A stretch of 17,862 bases of DNA from a virus: UHGV virus genome UHGV-0140088; one strand, written 5' to 3'. Shown in pieces: positions 3,776-17,304 of this stretch (position 1 is the stretch's first letter; each line of letters opens with the position of its first letter). The translations under genes and the position numbers were made by a program. The notes beneath the pieces are model-generated. The model was not told the origin of the DNA. It searched no databases and worked only from the letters and a program-made list of their open reading frames with translations.

Positions 3776-5212
3776 TCAGAATCCTCCTTTCTTCTTGGAC
3801 TGCGGTTCCTCGCGTTCACGTCGGCGCATTTCAGCAGACTGTTGGTCTGTGTCATAAATAGCGCCATTTGCCTGAATGCAATACACCGTGCCGGTATTGC
3901 CATGACGATTGAGACGAAGGATTAGTTCGGTTTCACCAGGTGGAACACTGTCATCAAAAGCGCCTTCACGATGGATCCCAACCCAATAATCGCAATCCTG
4001 TTCAATCTGCCCTGTATCTCGTGAGTCACTTGGTAATGGGCGTTTATTGGTTCGGCTTTCCAGTGCGCGGTTAAGCTGCGTCAGAAGCACAACAACGCAA
4101 TCAAGCTCTTTGGCAAGGTTCTTCAGTCCTTTGGTGATCATGCCGTAAGCAAGGTCGTTGCGATCGGCCTTCTCAGCGGTCATTAGTGTCAGGTAATCGA
4201 CCAGAATCATGCCAACACATCCTTTTTCTCGCTTGATTCGACGGCTTTCGCTGACGATTTGAGCCAGAGATAATCCCGGCGTGTCGTCGATGTAAAGCAT
4301 GTCGATTTCACTCAAGCGATTAGCTGTTTCGATCGCCCTGTTGAAGTCACCATCGTAATCACCCTGATAGCCGTCATCAGCGTCATTTGTCGCCGGAAGG
4401 TAAAAAATATTCGGGTTAACACCAGACTTCTGCCCTACCAGTTTTTCCAGTATCTGATCACCTGGCATTTCAAGGCTGAACATCAAAGCGGGCTTTTTCT
4501 CATGCACTGCGCAATTGATTGCCATCTGGCTGTATAGCGTCGTTTTCCCCATCTTAGGGCGAGCGCCAATGACAAACAGAGAGCCTTTCACCAGGCCTTT
4601 CGGTGACAGCATCCTGTCCAGCGATGGGATCCCTGTGCTCATTCCTCGTTGTTCGCCTGACGGATCAAATCGCTTCTCAAGGTCGCTAACCCAGTCTTCC
4701 ATGACCTCACCAAATGAGCGAAGGCCGCGACGCGATCCGGTTTTTGCATGGTCTGTCAGTTGCGTGAAAATCGCCTGAATAGCTTCGTACTTCTGCGTTG
4801 CAGTCATTCCGTTGCGGGAATAGAGCAATTCCGTCGCTTCAGTCATGCGGTTGATGGCGTAGCGTTCCATTGCGGTTTCACGAACCTGCATTGCATAGGC
4901 AACGATGTTTGCTGCGCTTGGCGTGTTCTTTGCGATCTCAGCGATATAAGCAAAACCGCCAACAGACGCCGTTAACGATTTACGCTCCAGTTCATCGAAA
5001 AGCGTCAGGCCATCTACTGGCTTTTGCTCCCGGTGCATTCTGGTTATCTCTTCGAAAAGGATTTTGTGTGGTCGGCTGTAAAATGAATCAGGCTTCAGCA
5101 TCGCCAGAACTTTCTGGACGCGCTCACTGCTGTCATCATCCAGAAGCAATCCACCAATCACCGCCTGCTCTGCCTCGATGCTATGGGGCGGCGCATAAAA
5201 ATTATCGGTCAT
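3776..5212 (-). CDS. Replicative DNA helicase, DnaB family (P22 gene 12-like)
   Basis: 478 aa from the ATG at 5212 (GAGGGTG RBS; 7 bp after the O stop). Walker A GARPKMGKT, Walker B-like ILVDYLTLM, and an N-terminal DnaB-like domain (IEAEQAVIGGLLLD). Confidence 0.9.
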   Translation of the reverse strand: MTDNFYAPPHSIEAEQAVIGGLLLDDDSSERVQKVLAMLKPDSFYSRPHKILFEEITRMHREQKPVDGLTLFDELERKSLTASVGGFAYIAEIAKNTPSAANIVAYAMQVRETAMERYAINRMTEATELLYSRNGMTATQKYEAIQAIFTQLTDHAKTGSRRGLRSFGEVMEDWVSDLEKRFDPSGEQRGMSTGIPSLDRMLSPKGLVKGSLFVIGARPKMGKTTLYSQMAINCAVHEKKPALMFSLEMPGDQILEKLVGQKSGVNPNIFYLPATNDADDGYQGDYDGDFNRAIETANRLSEIDMLYIDDTPGLSLAQIVSESRRIKREKGCVGMILVDYLTLMTAEKADRNDLAYGMITKGLKNLAKELDCVVVLLTQLNRALESRTNKRPLPSDSRDTGQIEQDCDYWVGIHREGAFDDSVPPGETELILRLNRHGNTGTVYCIQANGAIYDTDQQSAEMRRREREEPQSKKKGGF

Positions 5213-6610: not shown

Positions 6611-6654
6611 TTCCCGCATTTCGGCGGGAATGAGGACCATGACTGTTAAAGAGC
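6611..6654 (-). promoter_or_regulatory. nutR: boxA (GCTCTTTAACA) plus boxB hairpin (TCCCGCCGAAATGCGGGA)
   Basis: Minus-strand sequence between the cro stop and cII carries a boxA consensus-like element followed ~13 nt later by a 6-bp stem-loop identical to the one at nutL. Confidence 0.6.
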
Positions 6655-6927: not shown

Positions 6928-7578
6928 ATGAAAACTCAATTGATGGGAGAGCGCATTCGCGCTCGGAGAAAAGAACTCAAGATCAGGCAGGCCGCACTTG
7001 GAAAGATGGTCGGCGTGTCTAATGTTGCCATATCTCAGTGGGAACGCTCTGAGACAGAGCCAAATGGAGAGAATCTTCTCGCCCTGGCTAATGCGTTGAA
7101 GTGTTCCCCTGACTATCTGATGAAAGGAGAGGAAAGTCTTTCAAACATTGCCTATCACAGTAGGCATGATCCAAGAGGGTCATACCCTCTGATTAGCTGG
7201 GTGAGCGCAGGATGCTGGATGGAAGCTGTAGAACCATATCATAAGCGTGCAATAGATAACTGGTACGATACAACCGTAGACTGTTCAGACGATTCGTTTT
7301 GGTTGGACGTGAAGGGAGACTCAATGACGGCTCCGGCCGGTCTCAGTATCCCTGAAGGAATGATAATACTCGTCGATCCTGAAGTAGAGCCGCGTAACGG
7401 GAAACTGGTAGTTGCAAAGCTCGAAGGAGAAAACGAGGCAACTTTCAAGAAGTTAGTTATTGATGCAGGCAGGAAGTTTCTAAAACCACTTAACCCACAA
7501 TATCCGATGATCGAGATCAACGGGAACTGCAAAATCATCGGCGTAGTTGTCGATGCAAAACTAGCAAACCTTCCATAA
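6928..7578 (+). CDS. c2: Prophage repressor, CI/C2 type (HTH plus S24 LexA-like autopeptidase)
   Basis: 216-aa product with an N-terminal HTH (LKIRQAALGKMVGVSNVAISQWE) and C-terminal S24 motifs (GDSM, Ala-Gly cleavage site, Lys). Closely resembles P22 C2 as recalled. Confidence 0.9.
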   Translation: MKTQLMGERIRARRKELKIRQAALGKMVGVSNVAISQWERSETEPNGENLLALANALKCSPDYLMKGEESLSNIAYHSRHDPRGSYPLISWVSAGCWMEAVEPYHKRAIDNWYDTTVDCSDDSFWLDVKGDSMTAPAGLSIPEGMIILVDPEVEPRNGKLVVAKLEGENEATFKKLVIDAGRKFLKPLNPQYPMIEINGNCKIIGVVVDAKLANLP

Positions 7579-7579
7579 G

Positions 7580-7602
7580 GGGGCATTCGCCCCTTTTTTT
7601 TA
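7580..7602 (+). terminator. Rho-independent terminator after the repressor gene
   Basis: GGGGC/GCCCC 5-bp stem with loop ATTC, followed by 9 consecutive T. Confidence 0.8.
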
Positions 7603-7639: not shown

Positions 7640-7698
7640 AGAAAATTTAAGTTTTCTTCAAAAATACTCTTGACCATTAATTAAAGAGATCTTAAATT
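7640..7698 (+). promoter_or_regulatory. OL/PL region: PL-like promoter overlapped by an 18-bp operator
   Basis: TTGACC (7670-7675), 17-bp spacer, TAAATT (7693-7698). Operator ATTAAAGAGATCTTAAAT (7680-7697) is a near-perfect palindrome matching the OR operators. An additional 16-bp palindrome GAAAATTTAAGTTTTC lies at 7640-7655. Confidence 0.6.
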
Positions 7699-7744: not shown

Positions 7745-7785
7745 GCTCTTTAACATTGATGGGATTGTCCCGCCGAAATGCGGGA
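7745..7785 (+). promoter_or_regulatory. nutL: boxA (GCTCTTTAACA) plus boxB hairpin
   Basis: boxA at 7745-7755 and stem-loop TCCCGCCGAAATGCGGGA at 7768-7785, the same sequence as at nutR, upstream of the N-like gene. Confidence 0.6.
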
Positions 7786-7892: not shown

Positions 7893-8192
7893 ATGACAGT
7901 AGTCATTACATATCTGGCTGACGATAACGCCAGAAATCGCCGCAGAGCACGCAGACAGGCTCAACGTGAACAGGCAATGCAAGAGCAGCGACTGGCGCGA
8001 AAAATTGCGCTAAAGCTCTCTGGTTGCGTCAGAGCAGATAAAGCAGCATCGCTCGGAAGCCTTCGCTGCAAGAAGGCAGAAGAAGTCGAGCGTAAACAGA
8101 ACCGTATTTACTACCGCAAGCCACGCAGTGAAATGGGTGTGACTTGTGTTGGTCGCCAGAAAATGAAATTAGGCAGCAAACCACTTATTTGA
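7893..8192 (+). CDS. N: N-like transcription antiterminator
   Basis: 99-aa basic protein with an arginine-rich motif near the N-terminus (NARNRRRARRQAQREQ). First gene of the PL operon, downstream of nutL. Confidence 0.6.
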   Translation: MTVVITYLADDNARNRRRARRQAQREQAMQEQRLARKIALKLSGCVRADKAASLGSLRCKKAEEVERKQNRIYYRKPRSEMGVTCVGRQKMKLGSKPLI

Positions 8193-8502: not shown

Positions 8503-8528
8503 CACAGGCCGCATAGTCGGCCTTCTTT
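8503..8528 (+). terminator. Possible intrinsic terminator between accessory genes 1 and 2
   Basis: AGGCCG/CGGCCT 6-bp stem with 6-nt loop, followed by TCTTTTGG. Confidence 0.35.
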
Positions 8529-9152: not shown

Positions 9153-9176
9153 GCCCTCCAGTGTGAGGGCTTTTTT
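9153..9176 (+). terminator. Rho-independent terminator closing the accessory insert
   Basis: GCCCTC/GAGGGC stem with loop CAGTGT, followed by TTTTTT. Confidence 0.7.
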
Positions 9177-9242
9177 ATATGCATACCAATAACGCTTCAT
9201 TCGAGGCGTTTTCGTTATGCAATCAAACAGAAGGAGCATCCT

Positions 9243-9413: not shown

Positions 9414-9517
9414 GTTTTACAGATAACTGGTCAGACGAAGAATTCATTCGTCAGATGAACAAAATGCTCAATCAGCACAAAGAACAGGAGAAAGATGATG
9501 ATTCTGACTCTGAATGA
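9410..9517 (+). CDS. Possible small acidic ORF (35 aa), translationally coupled to cIII
   Basis: ATGA overlap with the cIII stop; product MSFTDNWSDEEFIRQMNKMLNQHKEQEKDDDSDSE. Kil-like position. Below the track cutoff; uncertain. Confidence 0.25.
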   Translation: MSFTDNWSDEEFIRQMNKMLNQHKEQEKDDDSDSE

Positions 9518-9806
9518 TAAGCGTGAAATATCGCAAATAATCGCAAGTTTTACTGATGAAGATTACGAACGAATCAACAGTGAAGTTGATCGTCTCTGCA
9601 AACGTTGCGACCCAATAAGCGAAATGCTTCGCTCATATAAACCAGATGAACACACTAAGGACGCTATCGACTGGCTGGAAGATGATGACTGTAACTATCA
9701 GGAAAAAGCCGCTGAATGGTTCTGGGATGCAATAACCGAAAGAGTTAAGGCTGAATATGCCTTCGCAATATTCAAACGCAGACACATTTTTGGAGAAGTT
9801 GCATGA
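9495..9806 (+). CDS. Hypothetical protein (103 aa) upstream of, and coupled to, recT
   Basis: The stop overlaps the RecT ATG (GCATGA). Acidic, with a CxxC pair (CKRCD). Position is analogous to gam/abc in lambda/P22. Confidence 0.45.
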   Translation: MMILTLNDKREISQIIASFTDEDYERINSEVDRLCKRCDPISEMLRSYKPDEHTKDAIDWLEDDDCNYQEKAAEWFWDAITERVKAEYAFAIFKRRHIFGEVA

Positions 9807-10705
9807 GCAATATCGTTGAATTCGTTAAACAGCAGGAGCAGTTATTCTGCGGAGCATTGACTGAACAGACGGTGACATGGGCTAAGGAAAGCCAGTTTGC
9901 AATTCAGTATTTCCAGAAAAACGATTACCTGGCTAAAACAGCACTGGCAAATCCAACCAGCGCACAGAACGCCATCATCAATGTTGCGGCGATCGGCATC
10001 ACCTTAAACCCGGCCAGCAAACTGGCTTATCTGGTTCCTCGCGACGGCATGGTGTGCCTTGATATCAGTTACATGGGATTACTTCATCTTGCGCAATCGA
10101 CAGGATCAATTAAGTGGGGGCAATGCAAACTGGTGTACTCAAACGACACCTATGAATCAAATGGCCTTGATTCAGCACCAACCCACAAATACAACGCATT
10201 TGGTGAGCGAGGCTCTATTGTTGGAGGTTATTGCACGGTTAAAACAGCAGATGGTGACTACCTGACTGAAGAAATGAGTCTGGCAGAAATTAAAGCTGTG
10301 GAAGCAACGAGCAAGGCAAAGAATGGACCGTGGAAAACATTCTGGGAAGAGATGGCGCGTAAAACAATAGTTAAACGCGCCAGCAAATACTGGCCTAAAG
10401 CCCAGCGACTGGATAATGCCATTCACCTTCTTAACGAAGATGAAGGTATGCATCAGGAACCAGTTATGCCGCACAAATCAGAGGAAGATATCCGCGAAGA
10501 TGAACGGAAACGCCAGCAGGAAATAATGGATAAAGCACAACTTCTTTGCGATGAAATGGCTCAGGCAGAAAACATGGATGATTTGAAGCGATATTTTGCA
10601 GAAGCATATCGCCTGACATCTGGAATGAAATTGCAGCAGAACGTACAAGCCATTTACGCAGAATGCAAAGCGAAACTGGAGGTTGCCAGTGAGCAAACTG
10701 TATGA
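9803..10705 (+). CDS. recT: RecT-family single-strand annealing recombinase
   Basis: 300-aa product with the RecT signature block NGPWKTFWEEMARKTIVKRASKYWP (compare Rac RecT NGPWVTHWEEMAKKTAIRRLFKYLP as recalled). Confidence 0.85.
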   Translation: MSNIVEFVKQQEQLFCGALTEQTVTWAKESQFAIQYFQKNDYLAKTALANPTSAQNAIINVAAIGITLNPASKLAYLVPRDGMVCLDISYMGLLHLAQSTGSIKWGQCKLVYSNDTYESNGLDSAPTHKYNAFGERGSIVGGYCTVKTADGDYLTEEMSLAEIKAVEATSKAKNGPWKTFWEEMARKTIVKRASKYWPKAQRLDNAIHLLNEDEGMHQEPVMPHKSEEDIREDERKRQQEIMDKAQLLCDEMAQAENMDDLKRYFAEAYRLTSGMKLQQNVQAIYAECKAKLEVASEQTV

Positions 10706-11171
10706 AATTGCCAATGAATACGCAAAATTGATGGATTCAGATTTAGAACCAGAGATGATTGCTGACACAATAGAAGGCATGGAAGGAGAATTTACCGATA
10801 AAATAGAGCAACTTCTTTCCGTCATTAAAAATGAATCTGGTTATGCTGAACGCCTCAAGGAAGAGGCAAAGTCGCTGAATGAGCGAGCCGCAGTAATTCA
10901 AAATAAGATTGACAGCATCAAATCATATATAGCGTCATCGCTTGAAATGGTTGGCAAGAAAAAGATTAGAGCAGGTATTCACCAGGTAACAATCCGCAAA
11001 CCGTCAGAAACTGTAGAAATCATCGACTCAAGCGCCCTTCCTCCTGAATACGTTGAGTTCGAAACGACAATTAAAGCCGACAAGTTGGCAATCAAGCACC
11101 AACTAAAAGCAGGAATAAATATCCCCGGCGCTCAACTCAAGGTTGGGAAACCTTCACTTCTTATCAAATAA
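10689..11171 (+). CDS. Gp157-like protein (Siphovirus Gp157 family), the usual RecT partner
   Basis: GTG start 6 nt after GGAGG; ~160 aa, coiled-coil-rich; immediately downstream of recT, the usual Gp157 arrangement. Assignment is by recall of the family, not a computed match. Confidence 0.5.
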   Translation: MSKLYEIANEYAKLMDSDLEPEMIADTIEGMEGEFTDKIEQLLSVIKNESGYAERLKEEAKSLNERAAVIQNKIDSIKSYIASSLEMVGKKKIRAGIHQVTIRKPSETVEIIDSSALPPEYVEFETTIKADKLAIKHQLKAGINIPGAQLKVGKPSLLIK

Positions 11172-11182
11172 CGGTATCGACT

Positions 11183-11497
11183 ATGAAAAAGACTCCATGG
11201 GAGAAATGGGAAGTCGATTTCTTGCGCGAAGTAGCGGCGACAATGCCAGTTCAAGTTATCGCTGAAAAACTGGAAAGGACTGAAAAAGCAGTAATGGCAA
11301 AAGCAACAAGGATTGGCGCTGACATTGTTAGCCGACTTCGTGGAAGACGCTGGACAAGAGCCGAAGTATCACTTTTCGGTAAGTTCTCCGCAGAAGAAAT
11401 AGCAATTGCAACCTGCCGCTCAATTTATTCAGTAAGAGCTATGCGATACAAGCTAAAAAAACTCGATGAAGAAAGAGCAGGCATACGAATAAATTAA
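11183..11497 (+). CDS. Hypothetical protein with two Myb/SANT-like Trp-containing repeats; putative DNA-binding
   Basis: 104 aa; repeats PWEKWEVDFLRE...IAEKLERTEKAV and RRWTRAEVSLFGKFSAEEIAIATCRS. Confidence 0.4.
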   Translation: MKKTPWEKWEVDFLREVAATMPVQVIAEKLERTEKAVMAKATRIGADIVSRLRGRRWTRAEVSLFGKFSAEEIAIATCRSIYSVRAMRYKLKKLDEERAGIRIN

Positions 11498-11513
11498 CAT
11501 GGAGTAATTAACA

Positions 11514-11795
11514 ATGAAGCTAAACATCGACCTCGGAAAATACGTTATTACCGGAACCAAACACGACCTGATTCTTAGTGAAAGAGGAATTATCAAAGAA
11601 GGCGAGAATGCAGGGAAAGAAACACTAAGTCGTATCGGTTATTACAGCAAGTTTGAGCATCTGGTTAAAGAGTTATGCAACCGTGAAATCCTGTTATCTC
11701 AGGCGCAGACGCTACAGGATATTCAGCAGCATATCGAAACTTTAGGTATGTCACTTAGCATGGCTATTGACCAGTTAGTGGAGAGTAAATCATGA
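11514..11795 (+). CDS. Hypothetical protein (93 aa)
   Basis: ATG with an upstream GGAG; AT-rich codon usage; no recognisable motif. Confidence 0.45.
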
Positions 11796-11952
11796 GAGGA
11801 CTTGCATACAATCCCGGCATTCTTCCGGCAGAAATGATTATTCGCCAACGAGTAAAGCCAATGCCATCGAGAGAGGAATTGCTTAAGAGAAATTCTTTTC
11901 CTTCAGTAAATCAAAACAAATATCTGAATGCGATGTGGCGGAGTGGGAAGAA

Positions 11953-12528
11953 ATGAAACAAATGTCACTAATTGAGATGGATGGATTTCTGAAAGGTAAA
12001 TGCATCCCACGAGATTTAAAGGTTAACGAAACAAACGCTGAATATCTGGTGCGTAAGTTCGGTGAGCTTGAATCAAAACTGGAAACGGCGTTGCGGGAGT
12101 GTCGTTCTGCTGGAATCACGATTGATAACCTTGAGGCCAAGTGCGCGGCGCTGGCAGCGGAGAGTGCGGGGCTAAAGGCGATATGTGATGACCGTCGCAG
12201 GTTCATCATGAATGGGGTGCAGATGGGTTATATCAAGGTGCCAGCAGCGGAAACAGATCCAGACCTTGAGACAATTCGCATTGCTATATCACCACAAAAG
12301 CCCATTCCAGCCACTGATGCTTTCCTGTCTGAAGTGCGGGCGCAGGGGGTGGATGCTGCTATAGAAGCTGCAAAAAATCTGGTGGTCCAAGAATATGAGT
12401 ATAAGGATTTCAAAGCGGCGCAGAGTGATTGCTGTATGCACCCTGGTTCAGACCTGGTAGGGAAGGTTGAAATGACTGAGTGGTTAGTTGACTTTGCTGC
12501 CCAGCTTCGCAAAGGAGGCAACCAGTGA
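11953..12528 (+). CDS. Hypothetical coiled-coil protein (about 192 aa)
   Basis: In-frame ATG at 11953 (the track begins at GTG 11935). Ala/Glu-rich coiled-coil region. The stop overlaps the next gene's GTG. Confidence 0.45.
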
Positions 12529-13136
12529 GCGAAATTAATTACCAGGCACTACGTGAGGCGGCAGAACGTGCAACTCCAGCAATGGAACGCCTGTTAATGT
12601 TGCCAGTTGATGATGATCTGATAAGCGAACAGGAACTTAAAGATAGCGGTGTTGATATTGATGCCCTCAACGCCTTCAAATTTCTGGCCGGACCAGAAAC
12701 CGTGCTGGCGCTACTGGATGAGAGCAACGCATTAGAGGAAACGCGTATCAACGATGTTTGTCGTATTGCAGAACTAACAAAACAACTGGAGTTGGCAAAA
12801 TCAAAACTCAACGAGCAGCGTGAGTATTACGAGGGCGTTATCTCGGATGGAAGTAAGCGCATTGCAGAACTGGAAGCACGGGAAATAAAACCAGCCAAAG
12901 GTGAAGTTCTTGTCGTTGTTTCTGGTTTTACTGGTTGCGGAAAAAGCGCCATTGCCGGGGAAATAGAAATCGCGATGAAGGCTATTGGTGTACCGGTTAA
13001 GTGGACTAATGGCGATGCAGAAAAGCGCATGACAGGAGCTGACTGGCTGACAGCGATTGAGATGTACAAACCAACAGTGCGCATCGTGGAAGTTAATGTG
13101 CCACGCGCCGCTGGCATTCGCATCAAAGGAGAGTGA
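12525..13136 (+). CDS. Ead/Ea22-like protein with a C-terminal P-loop-like segment
   Basis: N-terminus [20 protein letters not shown] matches the conserved Ea22-family start (QALREAAEKAT) as recalled. The C-terminal part contains VLVVVSGFTGCGKS (GxxGxGKS). Confidence 0.55.
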   Translation: MSEINYQALREAAERATPAMERLLMLPVDDDLISEQELKDSGVDIDALNAFKFLAGPETVLALLDESNALEETRINDVCRIAELTKQLELAKSKLNEQREYYEGVISDGSKRIAELEAREIKPAKGEVLVVVSGFTGCGKSAIAGEIEIAMKAIGVPVKWTNGDAEKRMTGADWLTAIEMYKPTVRIVEVNVPRAAGIRIKGE

Positions 13137-13137
13137 G

Positions 13138-13893
13138 ATGATTCACTATCACGGTGGTCCTATTACTCCGGATACGTGCGCAATGAGAGCATGGAAAGGG
13201 CGACATGCGTTTATCAGTTTTGCGCATTCAGGCCAGATCAATCTCGCTGCTGAATACTGTCAGTCGTTCGCGCTGGACAACGGTGCATTCACCGCCTGGA
13301 AAGCAGCTGGCAAAAACAAAATCGACTGGAGCGATTACTACGAGTTTGTCGCTCGCTGGAAGAATCACCCAGGATTCGATTTTGCCATTATCCCTGATGT
13401 TATTGATGGCGGAGAGGAAGAAAATGATGCGCTTCTGAATGAGTGGCCTCACGGAAAACTAGTTGGCGTTCCAGTGTGGCACATGAATGAAAGTGACGAG
13501 CGATTTATTCATTTGTGCAATGAGTTTCCGCGAGTGGCTATCGGTAGTTGTGGCGACTATGACGTAAAGCGCCCAACTCTTGCGGTAGCCAGAATGAAAG
13601 ACCTGATTCGTCACATTGTTGATGAGCATGGTCAGCCGGTTACGAAACTACATGGATTGCGCATGTTAAATCCGCTGATATTCACAAAATTACCCTTAGC
13701 CAGCGCAGATAGTACGAACGTCGCTCGAAACATCGGTATTGATAAAGCCTGGTCTGGGGCTTATGCACCTGCAAGTAAAGAGACACGCGCAGCATTAATG
13801 GTAGAACGGATTGAGGCACACAATAGCCCTGGTTCTCTTGCGTATTGTGAACAACGCGACCGCTTTGAAATGCAATTGCAACTAGCAGTTTAA
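13138..13893 (+). CDS. Conserved prophage protein, possibly tRNA-guanine transglycosylase-like (DpdA-like)
   Basis: 251 aa from the ATG at 13138 (AAGGAGAG RBS). Short motifs resemble TGT-family blocks: FALDNGAF (TGT DSGGFQ), RVAIGSCGDY (Gly-rich strand), KLHGLRM (LHxFG-like) and ADSTNVARNIG (TGT DCVMPTRNARNG). Tentative. Confidence 0.4.
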   Translation: MIHYHGGPITPDTCAMRAWKGRHAFISFAHSGQINLAAEYCQSFALDNGAFTAWKAAGKNKIDWSDYYEFVARWKNHPGFDFAIIPDVIDGGEEENDALLNEWPHGKLVGVPVWHMNESDERFIHLCNEFPRVAIGSCGDYDVKRPTLAVARMKDLIRHIVDEHGQPVTKLHGLRMLNPLIFTKLPLASADSTNVARNIGIDKAWSGAYAPASKETRAALMVERIEAHNSPGSLAYCEQRDRFEMQLQLAV

Positions 13894-13903
13894 GGATTAA
13901 CAA

Positions 13904-14782
13904 ATGACCACTATAACCAAAGAGCGGCTACTGACAATCAAGCAGTGGCGCGAAATATACGGACCTGGCAGCAACGTTGTACTGCCAGCAGAAGAAGCGG
14001 AAGAACTGGCACGAATTGCTCTGGCATCGCTGGAAGCAGAGCCTGTTCTGTATCAGTCCTGCACTCGCCCCACCTGGAATAGCGGTGTTCCGTGGACGGA
14101 ATGGAAAGAACGTAGTCGTGAGTGCTACGAAGACGATTTGCGTTTTACAGACACGCCTGACCATGCCGGTTGGATATACAAATGTCGAAAACTATACACC
14201 ACTCCGCCAGCGCCGATAGCGTTAGAGGCCATTGAAAACGCAATTGAATACATTCGTAGTATCGCTTTTCACATCGATGAAGACGATTACCACGGCAAAC
14301 ATATTGCGTATTTCATGCGACAAGCATTGGCCTGGCTGGAAGGGCATTCATGCAGCGACGACAGACTGGGTAAAGCCGACAATCAACCAGTACGCGGCAA
14401 CCAGGCTGCCGAATCCAATCGCGGTAATGAGTGGACCGGCAATCCTGATATTGATAACGCAATCATCATGCTCGATCGCATAGATACGCTGGAAAGTTGC
14501 GATGATGACCGTATTGAGGCTGTTAAGGCTGTTTTGCGTAGACTGGCTGGCAACTATCCGGTAATTCCGGATAGTTGGATAAGCTGTAGTGAGCGAATGC
14601 CGGATACCAAAACAGCCGTTCTTGTTGCCGTGGAGTTTGACAGGAAAGGTGACTGGCGAATGAAATGGGCGACTTACATCCCGGGGCATCCTGACGCTAA
14701 TGATGGGTGGGTAATACCTGGTGCGTCGTGGATACCATCACACTGGATGCCTCTACCTGAACCGCCGCAGGAGGCGAAATGA
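13904..14782 (+). CDS. DUF551-type C-terminal domain protein
   Basis: 292 aa; the C-terminus WISCSERMPDTKTAVLVAV...GWVIPGASWIPSHWMPLPEPP matches the DUF551 pattern common in enterobacterial prophage accessory regions (recalled). Confidence 0.55.
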   Translation: MTTITKERLLTIKQWREIYGPGSNVVLPAEEAEELARIALASLEAEPVLYQSCTRPTWNSGVPWTEWKERSRECYEDDLRFTDTPDHAGWIYKCRKLYTTPPAPIALEAIENAIEYIRSIAFHIDEDDYHGKHIAYFMRQALAWLEGHSCSDDRLGKADNQPVRGNQAAESNRGNEWTGNPDIDNAIIMLDRIDTLESCDDDRIEAVKAVLRRLAGNYPVIPDSWISCSERMPDTKTAVLVAVEFDRKGDWRMKWATYIPGHPDANDGWVIPGASWIPSHWMPLPEPPQEAK

Positions 14783-15039
14783 TGGATGTAAAAGAGAAGG
14801 TTTTGCAGGTGATGCGTTCCCGGGCTGCCCTGCAAGATAAAGCTCTCGGCGGGGAATATCCATTCAGGATGGCAACCTGGAATCTGCGGTTGGCAATGGA
14901 GAAGGAATTTCCTGATGAAGAATGGCGTTCGGCAGATTTGCGCAAAATTCTTATGGAGCTGGCTAAAGACGGAACAGTATCCAAAGATACCCATGCCAGC
15001 CGGATTGGTCAGGCGGTATGGAGACTGGAGGTGAGGTAA
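14779..15039 (+). CDS. Hypothetical protein (86 aa)
   Basis: ATGA overlap with the upstream stop; no recognisable motif. Confidence 0.45.
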   Translation: MMDVKEKVLQVMRSRAALQDKALGGEYPFRMATWNLRLAMEKEFPDEEWRSADLRKILMELAKDGTVSKDTHASRIGQAVWRLEVR

Positions 15040-15323
15040 TGGTTAACCTGCAACTTGCCGTTAAAGGTGAATACTTCGATGCCATGATTCGCGGGGAGAA
15101 AACGGAAGAGTATCGCCTGTGTAATGACTACTGGAATAAGCGCCTCGTTAACCGTAAGTATGACCGCCTGATTATCACAAAGGGATATCCGAAGCGCGAA
15201 GACTTCAGTCGCAGAATTGACGTCCCGTATAACGGATATGAAGTGAAGACAATCACACATCCGCACTTTGGCGATAAACCGGTAAAGGTATACGCGATAA
15301 AGGTGAATATCGACACTGAATAA
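15039..15323 (+). CDS. ASCH (PUA-like) domain protein
   Basis: 94 aa from the ATG at 15039 (GGAGGTGAGG RBS). Product MVNLQLAVKGEYFDAMIRGEKTEEYRL... fits the ASCH pattern (ikpeyfdaI-sGkKt-E-R). Confidence 0.5.
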   Translation: MVNLQLAVKGEYFDAMIRGEKTEEYRLCNDYWNKRLVNRKYDRLIITKGYPKREDFSRRIDVPYNGYEVKTITHPHFGDKPVKVYAIKVNIDTE

Positions 15324-15327
15324 CAAT

Positions 15328-15382
15328 CCTCGCACTCGCGGGGATTTCTTTTATCTGAACTCGCTACGGCGAGTTTTGTTTT
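15328..15382 (+). terminator. Tandem intrinsic terminator-like hairpins after the ASCH gene
   Basis: Hairpin 1: CCTCGC/GCGGGG with loop ACTC, then ATTTCTTTT. Hairpin 2 (15358-15382): AACTCGC/GCGAGTT with loop TACG, then TTGTTTT. Confidence 0.55.
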
Positions 15383-15395
15383 ATGGAGACAAGAA

Positions 15396-15740
15396 ATGTC
15401 AGATTTGGCTATGAAGGTTTTGAAATGGCAATCGACTGGCGATGTTGGCATCAGTAGCGCAACTCTTGCCTCAATCGCATGTGGACTGAAAAAGAATATC
15501 TATGGTCATCACTTCGGTGCTCCACATGACGCAGCCGATTTCCGACGATGCGTTGCGCTTGTCGAGCAGATTCCAGAAATCAGGGATTCATTCGACAAGG
15601 TTGCAAAGCGCGTTCCGGCATTCAAAGGAATCCTCAACGAATGGGATTCCCTCGTTGCTCTGTTGAAGTCTGAAATGAAGATACACGGAAACAAAGCACC
15701 AGAGACTTACAGGAGAATCAGCGAGTTACGAAAGGACTAA
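15396..15740 (+). CDS. Hypothetical protein (114 aa)
   Basis: ATG ORF between the terminators and xis; no recognisable motif. Confidence 0.45.
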   Translation: MSDLAMKVLKWQSTGDVGISSATLASIACGLKKNIYGHHFGAPHDAADFRRCVALVEQIPEIRDSFDKVAKRVPAFKGILNEWDSLVALLKSEMKIHGNKAPETYRRISELRKD

Positions 15741-15829
15741 CCACAGTCTCACACTCGATGAGGACTGTTCATTTTTCAAGATATCCAGACCTACCGCAAT
15801 AATACCAACTCAATAAATGGAGATTCCAG

Positions 15830-16177
15830 GTGGAAGAAGAAATCTTCACTCGTGAAGAGGCAGCGTCGTATCTGAAGGTAGACAAAGGCACTATCACGCA
15901 GTGGATACGAAGTGGACGACTTCAGGCCGCAAAGATAAATCCAGATAAACCTAAAAGCCCATATCGCATTTGCAAGTCAGACTGCATTGCGGCGCTTAAG
16001 TCTGTGAGACACAATAGCGCGGTGAATGCGGTTGATGTGCAGGAGGTTAAAGCATGTCAATCAAACTACGCGGTGGCACGTGGCACTGCGATTTCGTCGC
16101 GCCAGATGGATCAAGAGTTAGACGCTCTCTTGAAACATCGGACAAGAGGCAAGCGCAAGAACTTCACGATCGTCTGA
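15830..16177 (+). CDS. xis: Excisionase (HTH, Xis/AlpA-like)
   Basis: GTG start 7 nt after GGAG. HTH segment REEAASYLKVDKGTITQWIRSGRL. The 3' end overlaps the integrase start, as usual for xis-int pairs. Confidence 0.65.
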   Translation: MEEEIFTREEAASYLKVDKGTITQWIRSGRLQAAKINPDKPKSPYRICKSDCIAALKSVRHNSAVNAVDVQEVKACQSNYAVARGTAISSRQMDQELDALLKHRTRGKRKNFTIV

Positions 16178-17214
16178 AAGCAGAAGCGTGGAGAGTAAAA
16201 AATCTCGGAGAATCACCGAAAAAGCTATTCAAGGAAGCCTGCATACGGTGGCTGCGTGAGAAATCGGATAAGAAGTCCATTGATGATGACAAGAGCATTA
16301 TATCGTTCTGGATGTTGCACTTCAGAGAAACCATTCTCTCTGACATAACAACAGAAAAAATAATGGAGGCGGTAGACGGGATGGAAAACCGCCGCCATCG
16401 CCTGAACTGGGAAATGAGCCGGGACAGGTGTTTGCGGCTTGGCAAGCCAGTGCCGGAGTATAAACCAAAGCTGGCAAGCAAAGGAACGAAGACGCGGCAT
16501 CTGGCAATACTTCGCGCTATTCTCAATATGGCTGTTGAATGGGGATGGATTGACAGGGCACCCAAAATATCAACACCACGCGTTAAGAATGGACGAATCA
16601 GATGGCTTACAGAGGAGGAATCGAAGCGCCTGTTTGCAGAAATTGCTCCTCATTTCTTCCCTGTGGTCATGTTTGCAATCACGACAGGCCTTCGCCGTTC
16701 CAACGTTACAGACCTTGAGTGGTCACAGGTCGATCTGGATAAGAAAATGGCATGGATGCACCCTGATGAAACAAAAGCTGGCAATGCGATCGGAGTTCCT
16801 CTTAACGAAACTGCATGCCAGATATTAAGAAAACAGCAGGGTCTCCATAAGAGATGGGTATTTGTCCACACCAAACCTGCCTACCGAAGCGACGGAACAA
16901 AAACAGCAGCGGTAAGGAAGATGAGAACCGACAGCAACAAGGCATGGAAGGGAGCGTTAAAGCGGGCAGGCATTAGCAACTTCCGCTTCCATGACCTGAG
17001 GCATACTTGGGCAAGCTGGCTGGTTCAGTCCGGTGTCTCTCTTCTCGCACTTAAAGAGATGGGAGGATGGGAAACTCTCGAAATGGTTCAAAGATATGCC
17101 CACCTTTCAGCCGGGCATCTCACCGAGCACGCGAGCAAAATCGATGCGATTATAAGTCGCAATGGCACAAATACGGCACAAGAGGAGAACGTAGTTTACT
17201 TAAATGCGAGGTAA
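16054..17214 (+). CDS. int: Tyrosine site-specific integrase (P22-type)
   Basis: 386 aa; C-terminal catalytic region with R...HDLRHTWASWLVQSGVSLLALKEMGGWETLEMVQRYAHL (R-H-R-Y family). Lies adjacent to the tRNA attachment site. Confidence 0.9.
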   Translation: MSIKLRGGTWHCDFVAPDGSRVRRSLETSDKRQAQELHDRLKAEAWRVKNLGESPKKLFKEACIRWLREKSDKKSIDDDKSIISFWMLHFRETILSDITTEKIMEAVDGMENRRHRLNWEMSRDRCLRLGKPVPEYKPKLASKGTKTRHLAILRAILNMAVEWGWIDRAPKISTPRVKNGRIRWLTEEESKRLFAEIAPHFFPVVMFAITTGLRRSNVTDLEWSQVDLDKKMAWMHPDETKAGNAIGVPLNETACQILRKQQGLHKRWVFVHTKPAYRSDGTKTAAVRKMRTDSNKAWKGALKRAGISNFRFHDLRHTWASWLVQSGVSLLALKEMGGWETLEMVQRYAHLSAGHLTEHASKIDAIISRNGTNTAQEENVVYLNAR

Positions 17215-17228
17215 CTTATTGATTTAAC

Positions 17229-17304
17229 TGGTGCCGATAATAGGAGTCGAACCTACGACCTTCGCATTACGAATGCGCTGCTCTACCAACTGAGCTATAT
17301 CGGC
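17229..17304 (-). tRNA. thrW: tRNA-Thr (anticodon CGU)
   Basis: Minus-strand 76-nt sequence GCCGATATAGCTCAGTTGGTAGAGCAGCGCATTCGTAATGCGAAGGTCGTAGGTTCGACTCCTATTATCGGCACCA: 7-bp acceptor stem, D-arm GCTC/GAGC, anticodon CGT at positions 34-36, T-loop TTCGACT, CCA end. Confidence 0.9.

Follow-up and report, generated by a model that had tools for sequence, protein, structure and literature searches.

What does a small gene for a protein of ASCH type do directly before two consecutive terminator-like hairpins, near the xis–int end of a phage genome? We addressed this question in a 17,862-nucleotide stretch of the virus genome UHGV-0140088, called here the window. An initial annotation, made from the sequence, had read the gene as an accessory function expressed in the lysogen and insulated by the hairpins from the neighbouring xis and int genes. 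Our analysis points to another account, which as a whole we consider probable: the gene is an ASCH cassette of the pL operon of a lambdoid prophage, and the hairpins are the conserved tandem terminator, of the tL4 type, of the same operon. The arrangement of the ASCH gene and the terminator pair is an ordinary one, already covered by public annotation or by published work.

A conserved gene overlapping its upstream neighbour

The ASCH-fold gene occupies positions 15039–15323 of the + strand, with its stop codon at 15321–15323, and encodes a minimal protein of the GKER type (94 amino acids, 11.3 kDa, pI 9.2). It is a real gene, because the product matches phrog_625 of the PHROG collection end to end (E 1e-48), because it has many relatives (535 in 90%-identity clusters; 787 clusters at 50% identity), and because variable sites in 78 related loci are enriched at the third codon position (25, 12 and 49 at positions 1, 2 and 3 of the ASCH frame). 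The reading frame is under purifying selection. Two overlapping open reading frames of the minus strand, 15009–15335 and 15128–15451, were considered and are unlikely to be genes, as the codon-position pattern fits the + frame.

As read from the sequence, the ATG at 15039 shares the pentanucleotide TAATG with the stop codon of an upstream 86-amino-acid gene (14779–15039, + strand), and a Shine–Dalgarno-like GGAGGTGAGG precedes it at 15025–15034 of the same strand. The overlap implies that ASCH would be translated by coupling to the 86-amino-acid gene. The latter belongs to phrog_2814, to which PHROG assigns no function, and its profile matches are limited to a faint GYF_2. It stands at the same offset of –260 from the ASCH gene in 40 of 80 related loci, and the two may thus form a two-gene cassette. 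Among ten longer relatives of the ASCH protein searched against Pfam, the sole partner domain was Ead/Ea22, in the relative P0122. In P0122 and in another of the longer relatives, P0121, the ASCH part (86–87% identity) lies at the C-terminus; these two may be read-through gene calls from upstream genes.

Predicted ASCH fold and signature

The AlphaFold2 model of the 94-residue protein, built with an alignment of 45 relatives, has a mean pLDDT of 85. A Foldseek search of the PDB with this model returned ASCH proteins as all of its top 21 matches, and its structural neighbours among viral proteins bear the names DUF3850, ASCH or ‘activating signal cointegrator'. The modelled fold is a PUA-like β-barrel in which a single helix lies between the first and second strands. 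The protein carries the ASCH signature GxKxxExR as G19-E-K21-T-E-E24-Y-R26, between helix 10–18 and strand 23–27, that is, at the α1–β2 junction, where in ASCH proteins this signature lines a cavity (PMC6803910). Among relatives that are 42–57% identical to the window protein, K21 never varies, and conservation is at least 90% at each of G19, E24 and R26. The same barrel, with α1 between β1 and β2 and with GxKxxExR at the α1–β2 junction, is found in the GKER subgroup of ASCH proteins (TthASCH, 2DP9; human EOLA1; the ASCH domain of TRIP4). In size the phage protein is near the minimal ASCH protein of E. faecalis (3iuw, 83 amino acids). It differs from E. coli YqfB, an N4-acetylcytidine amidohydrolase (PDB 9KYF), in that the latter has Thr24 (GKTR type) in place of the phage Glu24.

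Profile scores do not reach the thresholds of the known families. The Pfam ASCH profile PF04266 gave 14.9 bits against a gathering cut-off of 21.2 (E 0.044) and covered residues 6–46 alone, and neither PF04266 nor DUF3850 (PF12961) matched above its gathering threshold. Among 71 diverse relatives, five reached E<0.01 with the ASCH profile and two with that of DUF3850. A search of NCBIfam with the 94-residue protein gave no match. Profiles of the family, when compared with PDB chains, did not reach ASCH chains significantly: 3iuw came up with E 0.47 in an alignment confined to the motif region, alongside chance matches to a xylosidase, eS1 and L15. An hhalign comparison of the family alignments with YqfB was likewise not significant and aligned residues 11–26 alone. 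RefSeq proteins 90–93% identical to the window protein are already named ‘ASCH domain-containing protein'. Judged by modelled fold and by motif, the product is a stand-alone ASCH/PUA-like protein, as the initial annotation had it, and by their sequences the ASCH proteins of phrog_625 are a divergent subfamily outside the Pfam threshold.

Position in an N-antiterminated pL operon

The window spans one half, from the immunity region to the integrase, of a lambdoid prophage inserted at thrW. Its minus strand carries cro, cII, an O-like initiator, a DnaB-like helicase, NinB, RusA and Q. Its + strand carries cI, the gene for an N-like antiterminator, cIII, RecT, a Mu-Gam-like protein, two Ead/Ea22-like proteins, a TGT-like gene (phrog_887), DUF551, the 86-amino-acid gene, the ASCH gene, the terminators, a 114-amino-acid gene, xis and the integrase. 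Beyond Q, on the strand opposite to Q and the replication genes, lies a 216-amino-acid open reading frame of phrog_410 (201–851, + strand).

The gene for the N-like antitermination protein (phrog_271, E 5e-37) is at 7893–8192 of the + strand. Upstream of it, a consensus scan found a pL-like promoter, TTGACC-17-TAAATT, at 7670–7698 (+ strand), and this is followed by a nutL site consisting of boxA GCTCTTTAACA (7745–7755, + strand) and the boxB hairpin CCCGCCGAAATGCGGG (7769–7784, + strand). Identical copies of boxA and boxB form nutR just downstream of cro (6613–6654, minus strand). The prophage thus combines an N gene with boxA and boxB downstream of both early promoters, the anatomy of an N/nut antitermination operon. 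The boxB loop, CGAAAT between arms of 5–6 bp, presumably differs from those of both lambda and P22.

On the + strand, the ASCH gene stands ~7.3 kb into the pL operon, and cI, the pL-like promoter, nutL and N all lie upstream of it. Each gene from 9495 to 15323 overlaps its neighbour or lies at most 16 nucleotides from it. No + strand promoter-like site was found between 10791 and 15396 by the consensus scan, which a weak or non-σ70 promoter could escape. Given this packing downstream of pL, nutL and N and the lack of a nearby promoter-like site, the ASCH gene belongs to the delayed-early genes of the N-antiterminated pL operon and lies in the exo–xis region, as it is called in work on lambda. 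It would there be one interchangeable cassette of the accessory (ea) region of the leftward early operon and, from the anatomy of the operon, would be transcribed from pL upon induction or infection, solely by polymerase that has crossed nutL and been modified by N.

These observations bear on whether ASCH and the accessory genes before it are instead a moron-like unit, expressed in the lysogen, insulated from xis and int, and serving defence or a modified-base function. The terminators do separate the accessory genes from the xis/int-proximal genes, and a TGT-like gene stands upstream, as such a unit might have it. Against it speak the chain of overlapping and closely coupled genes downstream of pL, nutL and N, and the empty stretch of the promoter scan; by the scan and the gene coupling, the ASCH gene has no promoter of its own directly upstream. 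As is established for lambda, CI represses pL in the lysogen. Expression of ASCH from the lysogen, which the initial annotation proposed, is thus unsupported, because the gene lies deep in the pL operon, is apparently coupled in translation to the gene before it and has no promoter-like site nearby.

At the terminator-distal end of the operon, xis (15830–16177, + strand) overlaps the gene for a tyrosine integrase (16054–17214, + strand), and directly after the integrase lies tRNA-Thr(CGT), thrW (17229–17304, minus strand). Since the same integrase/tRNA junction adjoins proA in E. coli genomes, we assign the attachment site to thrW. We take this to resemble the P22-type attachment site; here the prophage has lambda-type N/nut control. 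Further terminator-like hairpins on the + strand, the strand of pL, were observed after cI (7577–7596), after the gene following N (8506–8523) and, as two hairpins, before cIII (9153–9170 and 9191–9210). Their positions presumably resemble those of lambda tImm, tL1 and tL2.

Two consecutive predicted intrinsic terminators follow the ASCH gene

The first hairpin (15325–15356, + strand) has a stem of nine pairs at 15325–15346 with an ACTC loop (tail TCTTTTAT / TCTTTTATCT), and the second (15357–15386, + strand) a stem of eight pairs at 15357–15376 with a TACG loop (tail TGTTTTAT / TGTTTTATGG). Their folding energies are –13.1 kcal/mol (z = –4.9) and –11.9 kcal/mol (z = –4.7), respectively, and none of 200 shuffled sequences folded as well as either. 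Both have a GC-rich stem-loop with an immediate U-tract downstream of a stop codon, the form of an intrinsic terminator. The ASCH gene is indeed the last gene before two such hairpins, as initially annotated; the annotated limits (15328–15352 and 15358–15382) denote the same objects but are off by a few bases.

In the consensus scan, the number of terminator-like sites in the whole region was not above chance (7 found versus 4.1±2.0 expected), and the two tandem hairpins were the best-scoring ones. They fill the 72-nucleotide gap after the ASCH stop codon, the sole intergenic gap of at least 70 nucleotides for the genes from 9495 to 15323. The gene after the hairpins (ATG at 15396) has GGAG as its ribosome-binding site, into which the tail of the second hairpin merges. 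This gene encodes 114 amino acids (15396–15740, + strand; phrog_1229) and is a homologue of HK022_32, annotated as ‘N15 early protein homolog'. A search of Rfam with positions 14900–15900 returned solely a chance, sub-threshold match to Leu_leader, over the hairpins. In a covariation test, the hairpins showed a single compensatory pair, a result that 125 of 500 shuffles also reached; this comparison is uninformative because the sequences are 97% identical.

The same terminator pair in lambda, HK022 and related loci

The tandem pair, about 75 nucleotides long, is 90–100% conserved in 316 phage records. In HK022 (X51962/AF069308), the homologous 94-amino-acid gene HK022_34 occupies the same position in the operon and is followed by the same two hairpins, the DNA being about 93% identical, and the HK022 record X51962, of 1989, annotates the first hairpin as ‘tL4 terminator'. 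No paper in the literature collection searched connects HK022 with tL4. In the P22-like phage MG40, the order is the ASCH gene (so annotated), an annotated terminator, Eac, Xis and Int. The lambda copy (29283–29361) is 93.7% identical and lies directly after ea8.5, the last ea gene, upstream of orf55, xis and int in an N-antiterminated pL operon. Bloch et al. 2014 (PMC4195576) predicted the lambda homologues of the first and the second hairpin to be terminators, t3 and t4, respectively. By homology and by their shared location, after the last ea gene and ahead of the xis–int-proximal genes, the hairpins of the window are a lambdoid pL-operon terminator.

The genes around the pair vary. In lambda the gene before it is ea8.5, whose product shows no similarity to the window's ASCH protein. 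We considered Ea8.5 (93 amino acids, in the same slot) as a possible ASCH homologue and rejected it, since the two did not align at all; Ea8.5 has a homeodomain/zinc-finger fold (PDB 2M7A, cited in PMC8614690). On the other side of the pair, HK022 differs from the window by an extra 59-amino-acid gene, HK022_33, and a third terminator, which separate the tandem pair from the homologue of the 114-amino-acid gene (4344–4535 of locus L002). Lambda has orf55 and a third terminator (t5) between the pair and the next gene (about 2580–2780 of locus L084). As the window is without the small gene and the third terminator of HK022 and lambda, the tandem pair marks an insertion/deletion junction. HK022 also integrates at a different site from the prophage of the window, and it uses put RNA and Nun instead of N/nut.

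Among close loci of IMG/VR, the pair directly follows the ASCH homologue in about 30 of 80, and in the others the next gene is a different one. Both hairpins were present in 41 of the 161 loci examined, which include TGT-bearing loci without ASCH, and at least three different genes were found 3′ of the pair in related loci. The idea that the terminators insulate the ASCH gene in particular does not hold, because the same pair follows the unrelated ea8.5 and other genes; its occurrence after unrelated genes in lambda and in ASCH-less loci also speaks against the moron-like unit considered above. The flanks of the pair are unrelated in different phages, which shows it to be a conserved stretch of sequence where phages swap unrelated gene cassettes. 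The tandem pair is best read as a conserved terminator of the pL operon that serves at the same time as a mosaic junction.

One locus, L082 (IMG/VR 643692022_000007), has a variant tandem terminator just 3′ of its ASCH gene. The first stem is rebuilt there (AACCTCG...CGAGGTT) with its pairing kept, including a compensatory swap of T-A to A-T, and the second hairpin is unchanged.

The hairpins could instead serve mainly as stabilisers of the 3′ end, as RNA-processing sites or as recombination linkers, and be inefficient terminators. Their 97% conservation beside unrelated flanking genes, which suggests a mosaic junction, and the missing covariation signal are consistent with such roles. However, the stems are canonical and GC-rich, T-tracts follow them immediately on the transcribed strand, independent annotators called terminators in HK022, MG40 and lambda, and the rebuilt stem of L082 has kept its pairing. 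In addition, these roles and termination are not mutually exclusive. We therefore find it unlikely that termination is not the main function of the pair. As terminators, the tandem hairpins would halt polymerase that has not been antiterminated before it reaches the xis–int end of the operon, and would thus reduce stray synthesis of Xis and Int. N-modified polymerase would be expected to read through them, by analogy with lambda and from the known biology of N.

Terminators within a lambdoid pL operon are thus normal, conserved and overridden by N, and are no mark of a unit expressed in the lysogen. In addition, the comparison documents the lambda t3/t4 pair (tL4 in HK022) as a portable boundary element beside unrelated gene cassettes.

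The TGT-like gene and defence systems

The TGT-like gene (13057–13893, + strand) matches phrog_887, ‘queuine tRNA-ribosyltransferase', with E 2e-103, and lies 1.1 kb upstream of the ASCH gene. Its product had no match in Pfam or NCBIfam, and the gene has 234 matching stretches in viral contigs. The TTG start at 13057 makes the gene overlap the Ea22-like gene by 80 nucleotides; because relatives align only from residue 12–28 onward, the true start is probably downstream of this codon.

The initial annotation saw in this neighbour a possible modified-base theme. Such a theme would be expected to show in a consistent linkage of the two genes, as in a DpdA/TGT-linked DNA-modification module, and no such linkage was found: the TGT-like gene is present in one of 80 loci anchored on ASCH, and the ASCH gene in nine of 71 loci that were anchored on TGT and reached far enough downstream. 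The two genes are distributed independently of each other. No genes of deazaguanine synthesis were identified among the annotated open reading frames of the window. The defence context that had been suggested fared no better, as PADLOC models gave no match at E≤0.01 for the ASCH protein or six of its neighbours. Both the rare co-occurrence and the PADLOC result weigh against a moron-like, lysogen-expressed unit, which, taken with the operon structure and the distribution of the terminators, we regard as very unlikely.

Possible activities of the ASCH protein

If the gene is a pL-operon cassette, its product would act early. At the level of fold and motif, it is a minimal, basic, single-domain ASCH β-barrel in which the GxKxxExR pocket is intact. 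The most likely activity of this pocket would be the binding of RNA or of a cytidine-type nucleotide, and the 94-residue protein is most likely a delayed-early RNA- or nucleotide-binding protein. No paper in the literature collection searched characterises the phage ASCH family to which it belongs.

It is also possible that the protein is an enzyme. According to a preprint, 19 ASCH proteins, none of them from a phage, remove N4-acetylcytidine (ac4C) from tRNA, and the Lys and Glu of the ‘GKER' octapeptide are the essential dyad of the reaction (bioRxiv 10.64898/2026.02.27.708502). Given that report on GKER-type proteins and the conservation of K21 and E24, the phage protein is possibly an N4-acylcytidine amidohydrolase, which may use the K21/E24 dyad to hydrolyse N4-acylcytidine, for example ac4C in tRNA. 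That it actively erases N4-acetylcytidine or a related N4-acyl mark from host RNA early after induction is a more specific proposal, and one that we hold to be rather improbable. For such an eraser, ac4C34 of the E. coli elongator tRNA-Met would presumably be the obvious target. It would then retune host translation or disarm a tRNA-directed defence, and would be the first viral RNA deacetylase of its kind. The family is widespread and keeps the Lys/Glu dyad while falling below the Pfam threshold, so that phrog_625 offers a cheap candidate for a viral N4-acylcytidine hydrolase.

Alternatively, the protein may be an anti-defence or host-takeover factor that acts by binding proteins or nucleic acids, with a non-enzymatic ASCH pocket, on the model of Ral, Gam and Abc2. 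These are encoded in the same operon region of other lambdoid phages, and the ASCH gene shares with them a place in the early-left accessory region, near the Gam-like and RecT genes, and has a cassette-like, mosaic distribution. However, K21, E24 and R26 are near-invariant among relatives of 42–57% identity, which suits a pocket for ligand binding or catalysis better than the surface of a fast-evolving inhibitor. We judge this alternative, too, to be unlikely, and prefer a nucleotide- or RNA-binding pocket. A further point in favour of anti-defence comes from the structural neighbours: the BFVD entry A0A8S5UN54, a viral protein of 168 amino acids, shares the fold of the ASCH protein (26% identity, TM 0.71) and bears the name ‘Restriction alleviation protein'. 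This name, however, was assigned automatically, and a fused domain may be its source; the entry is a weak lead to an anti-restriction role.
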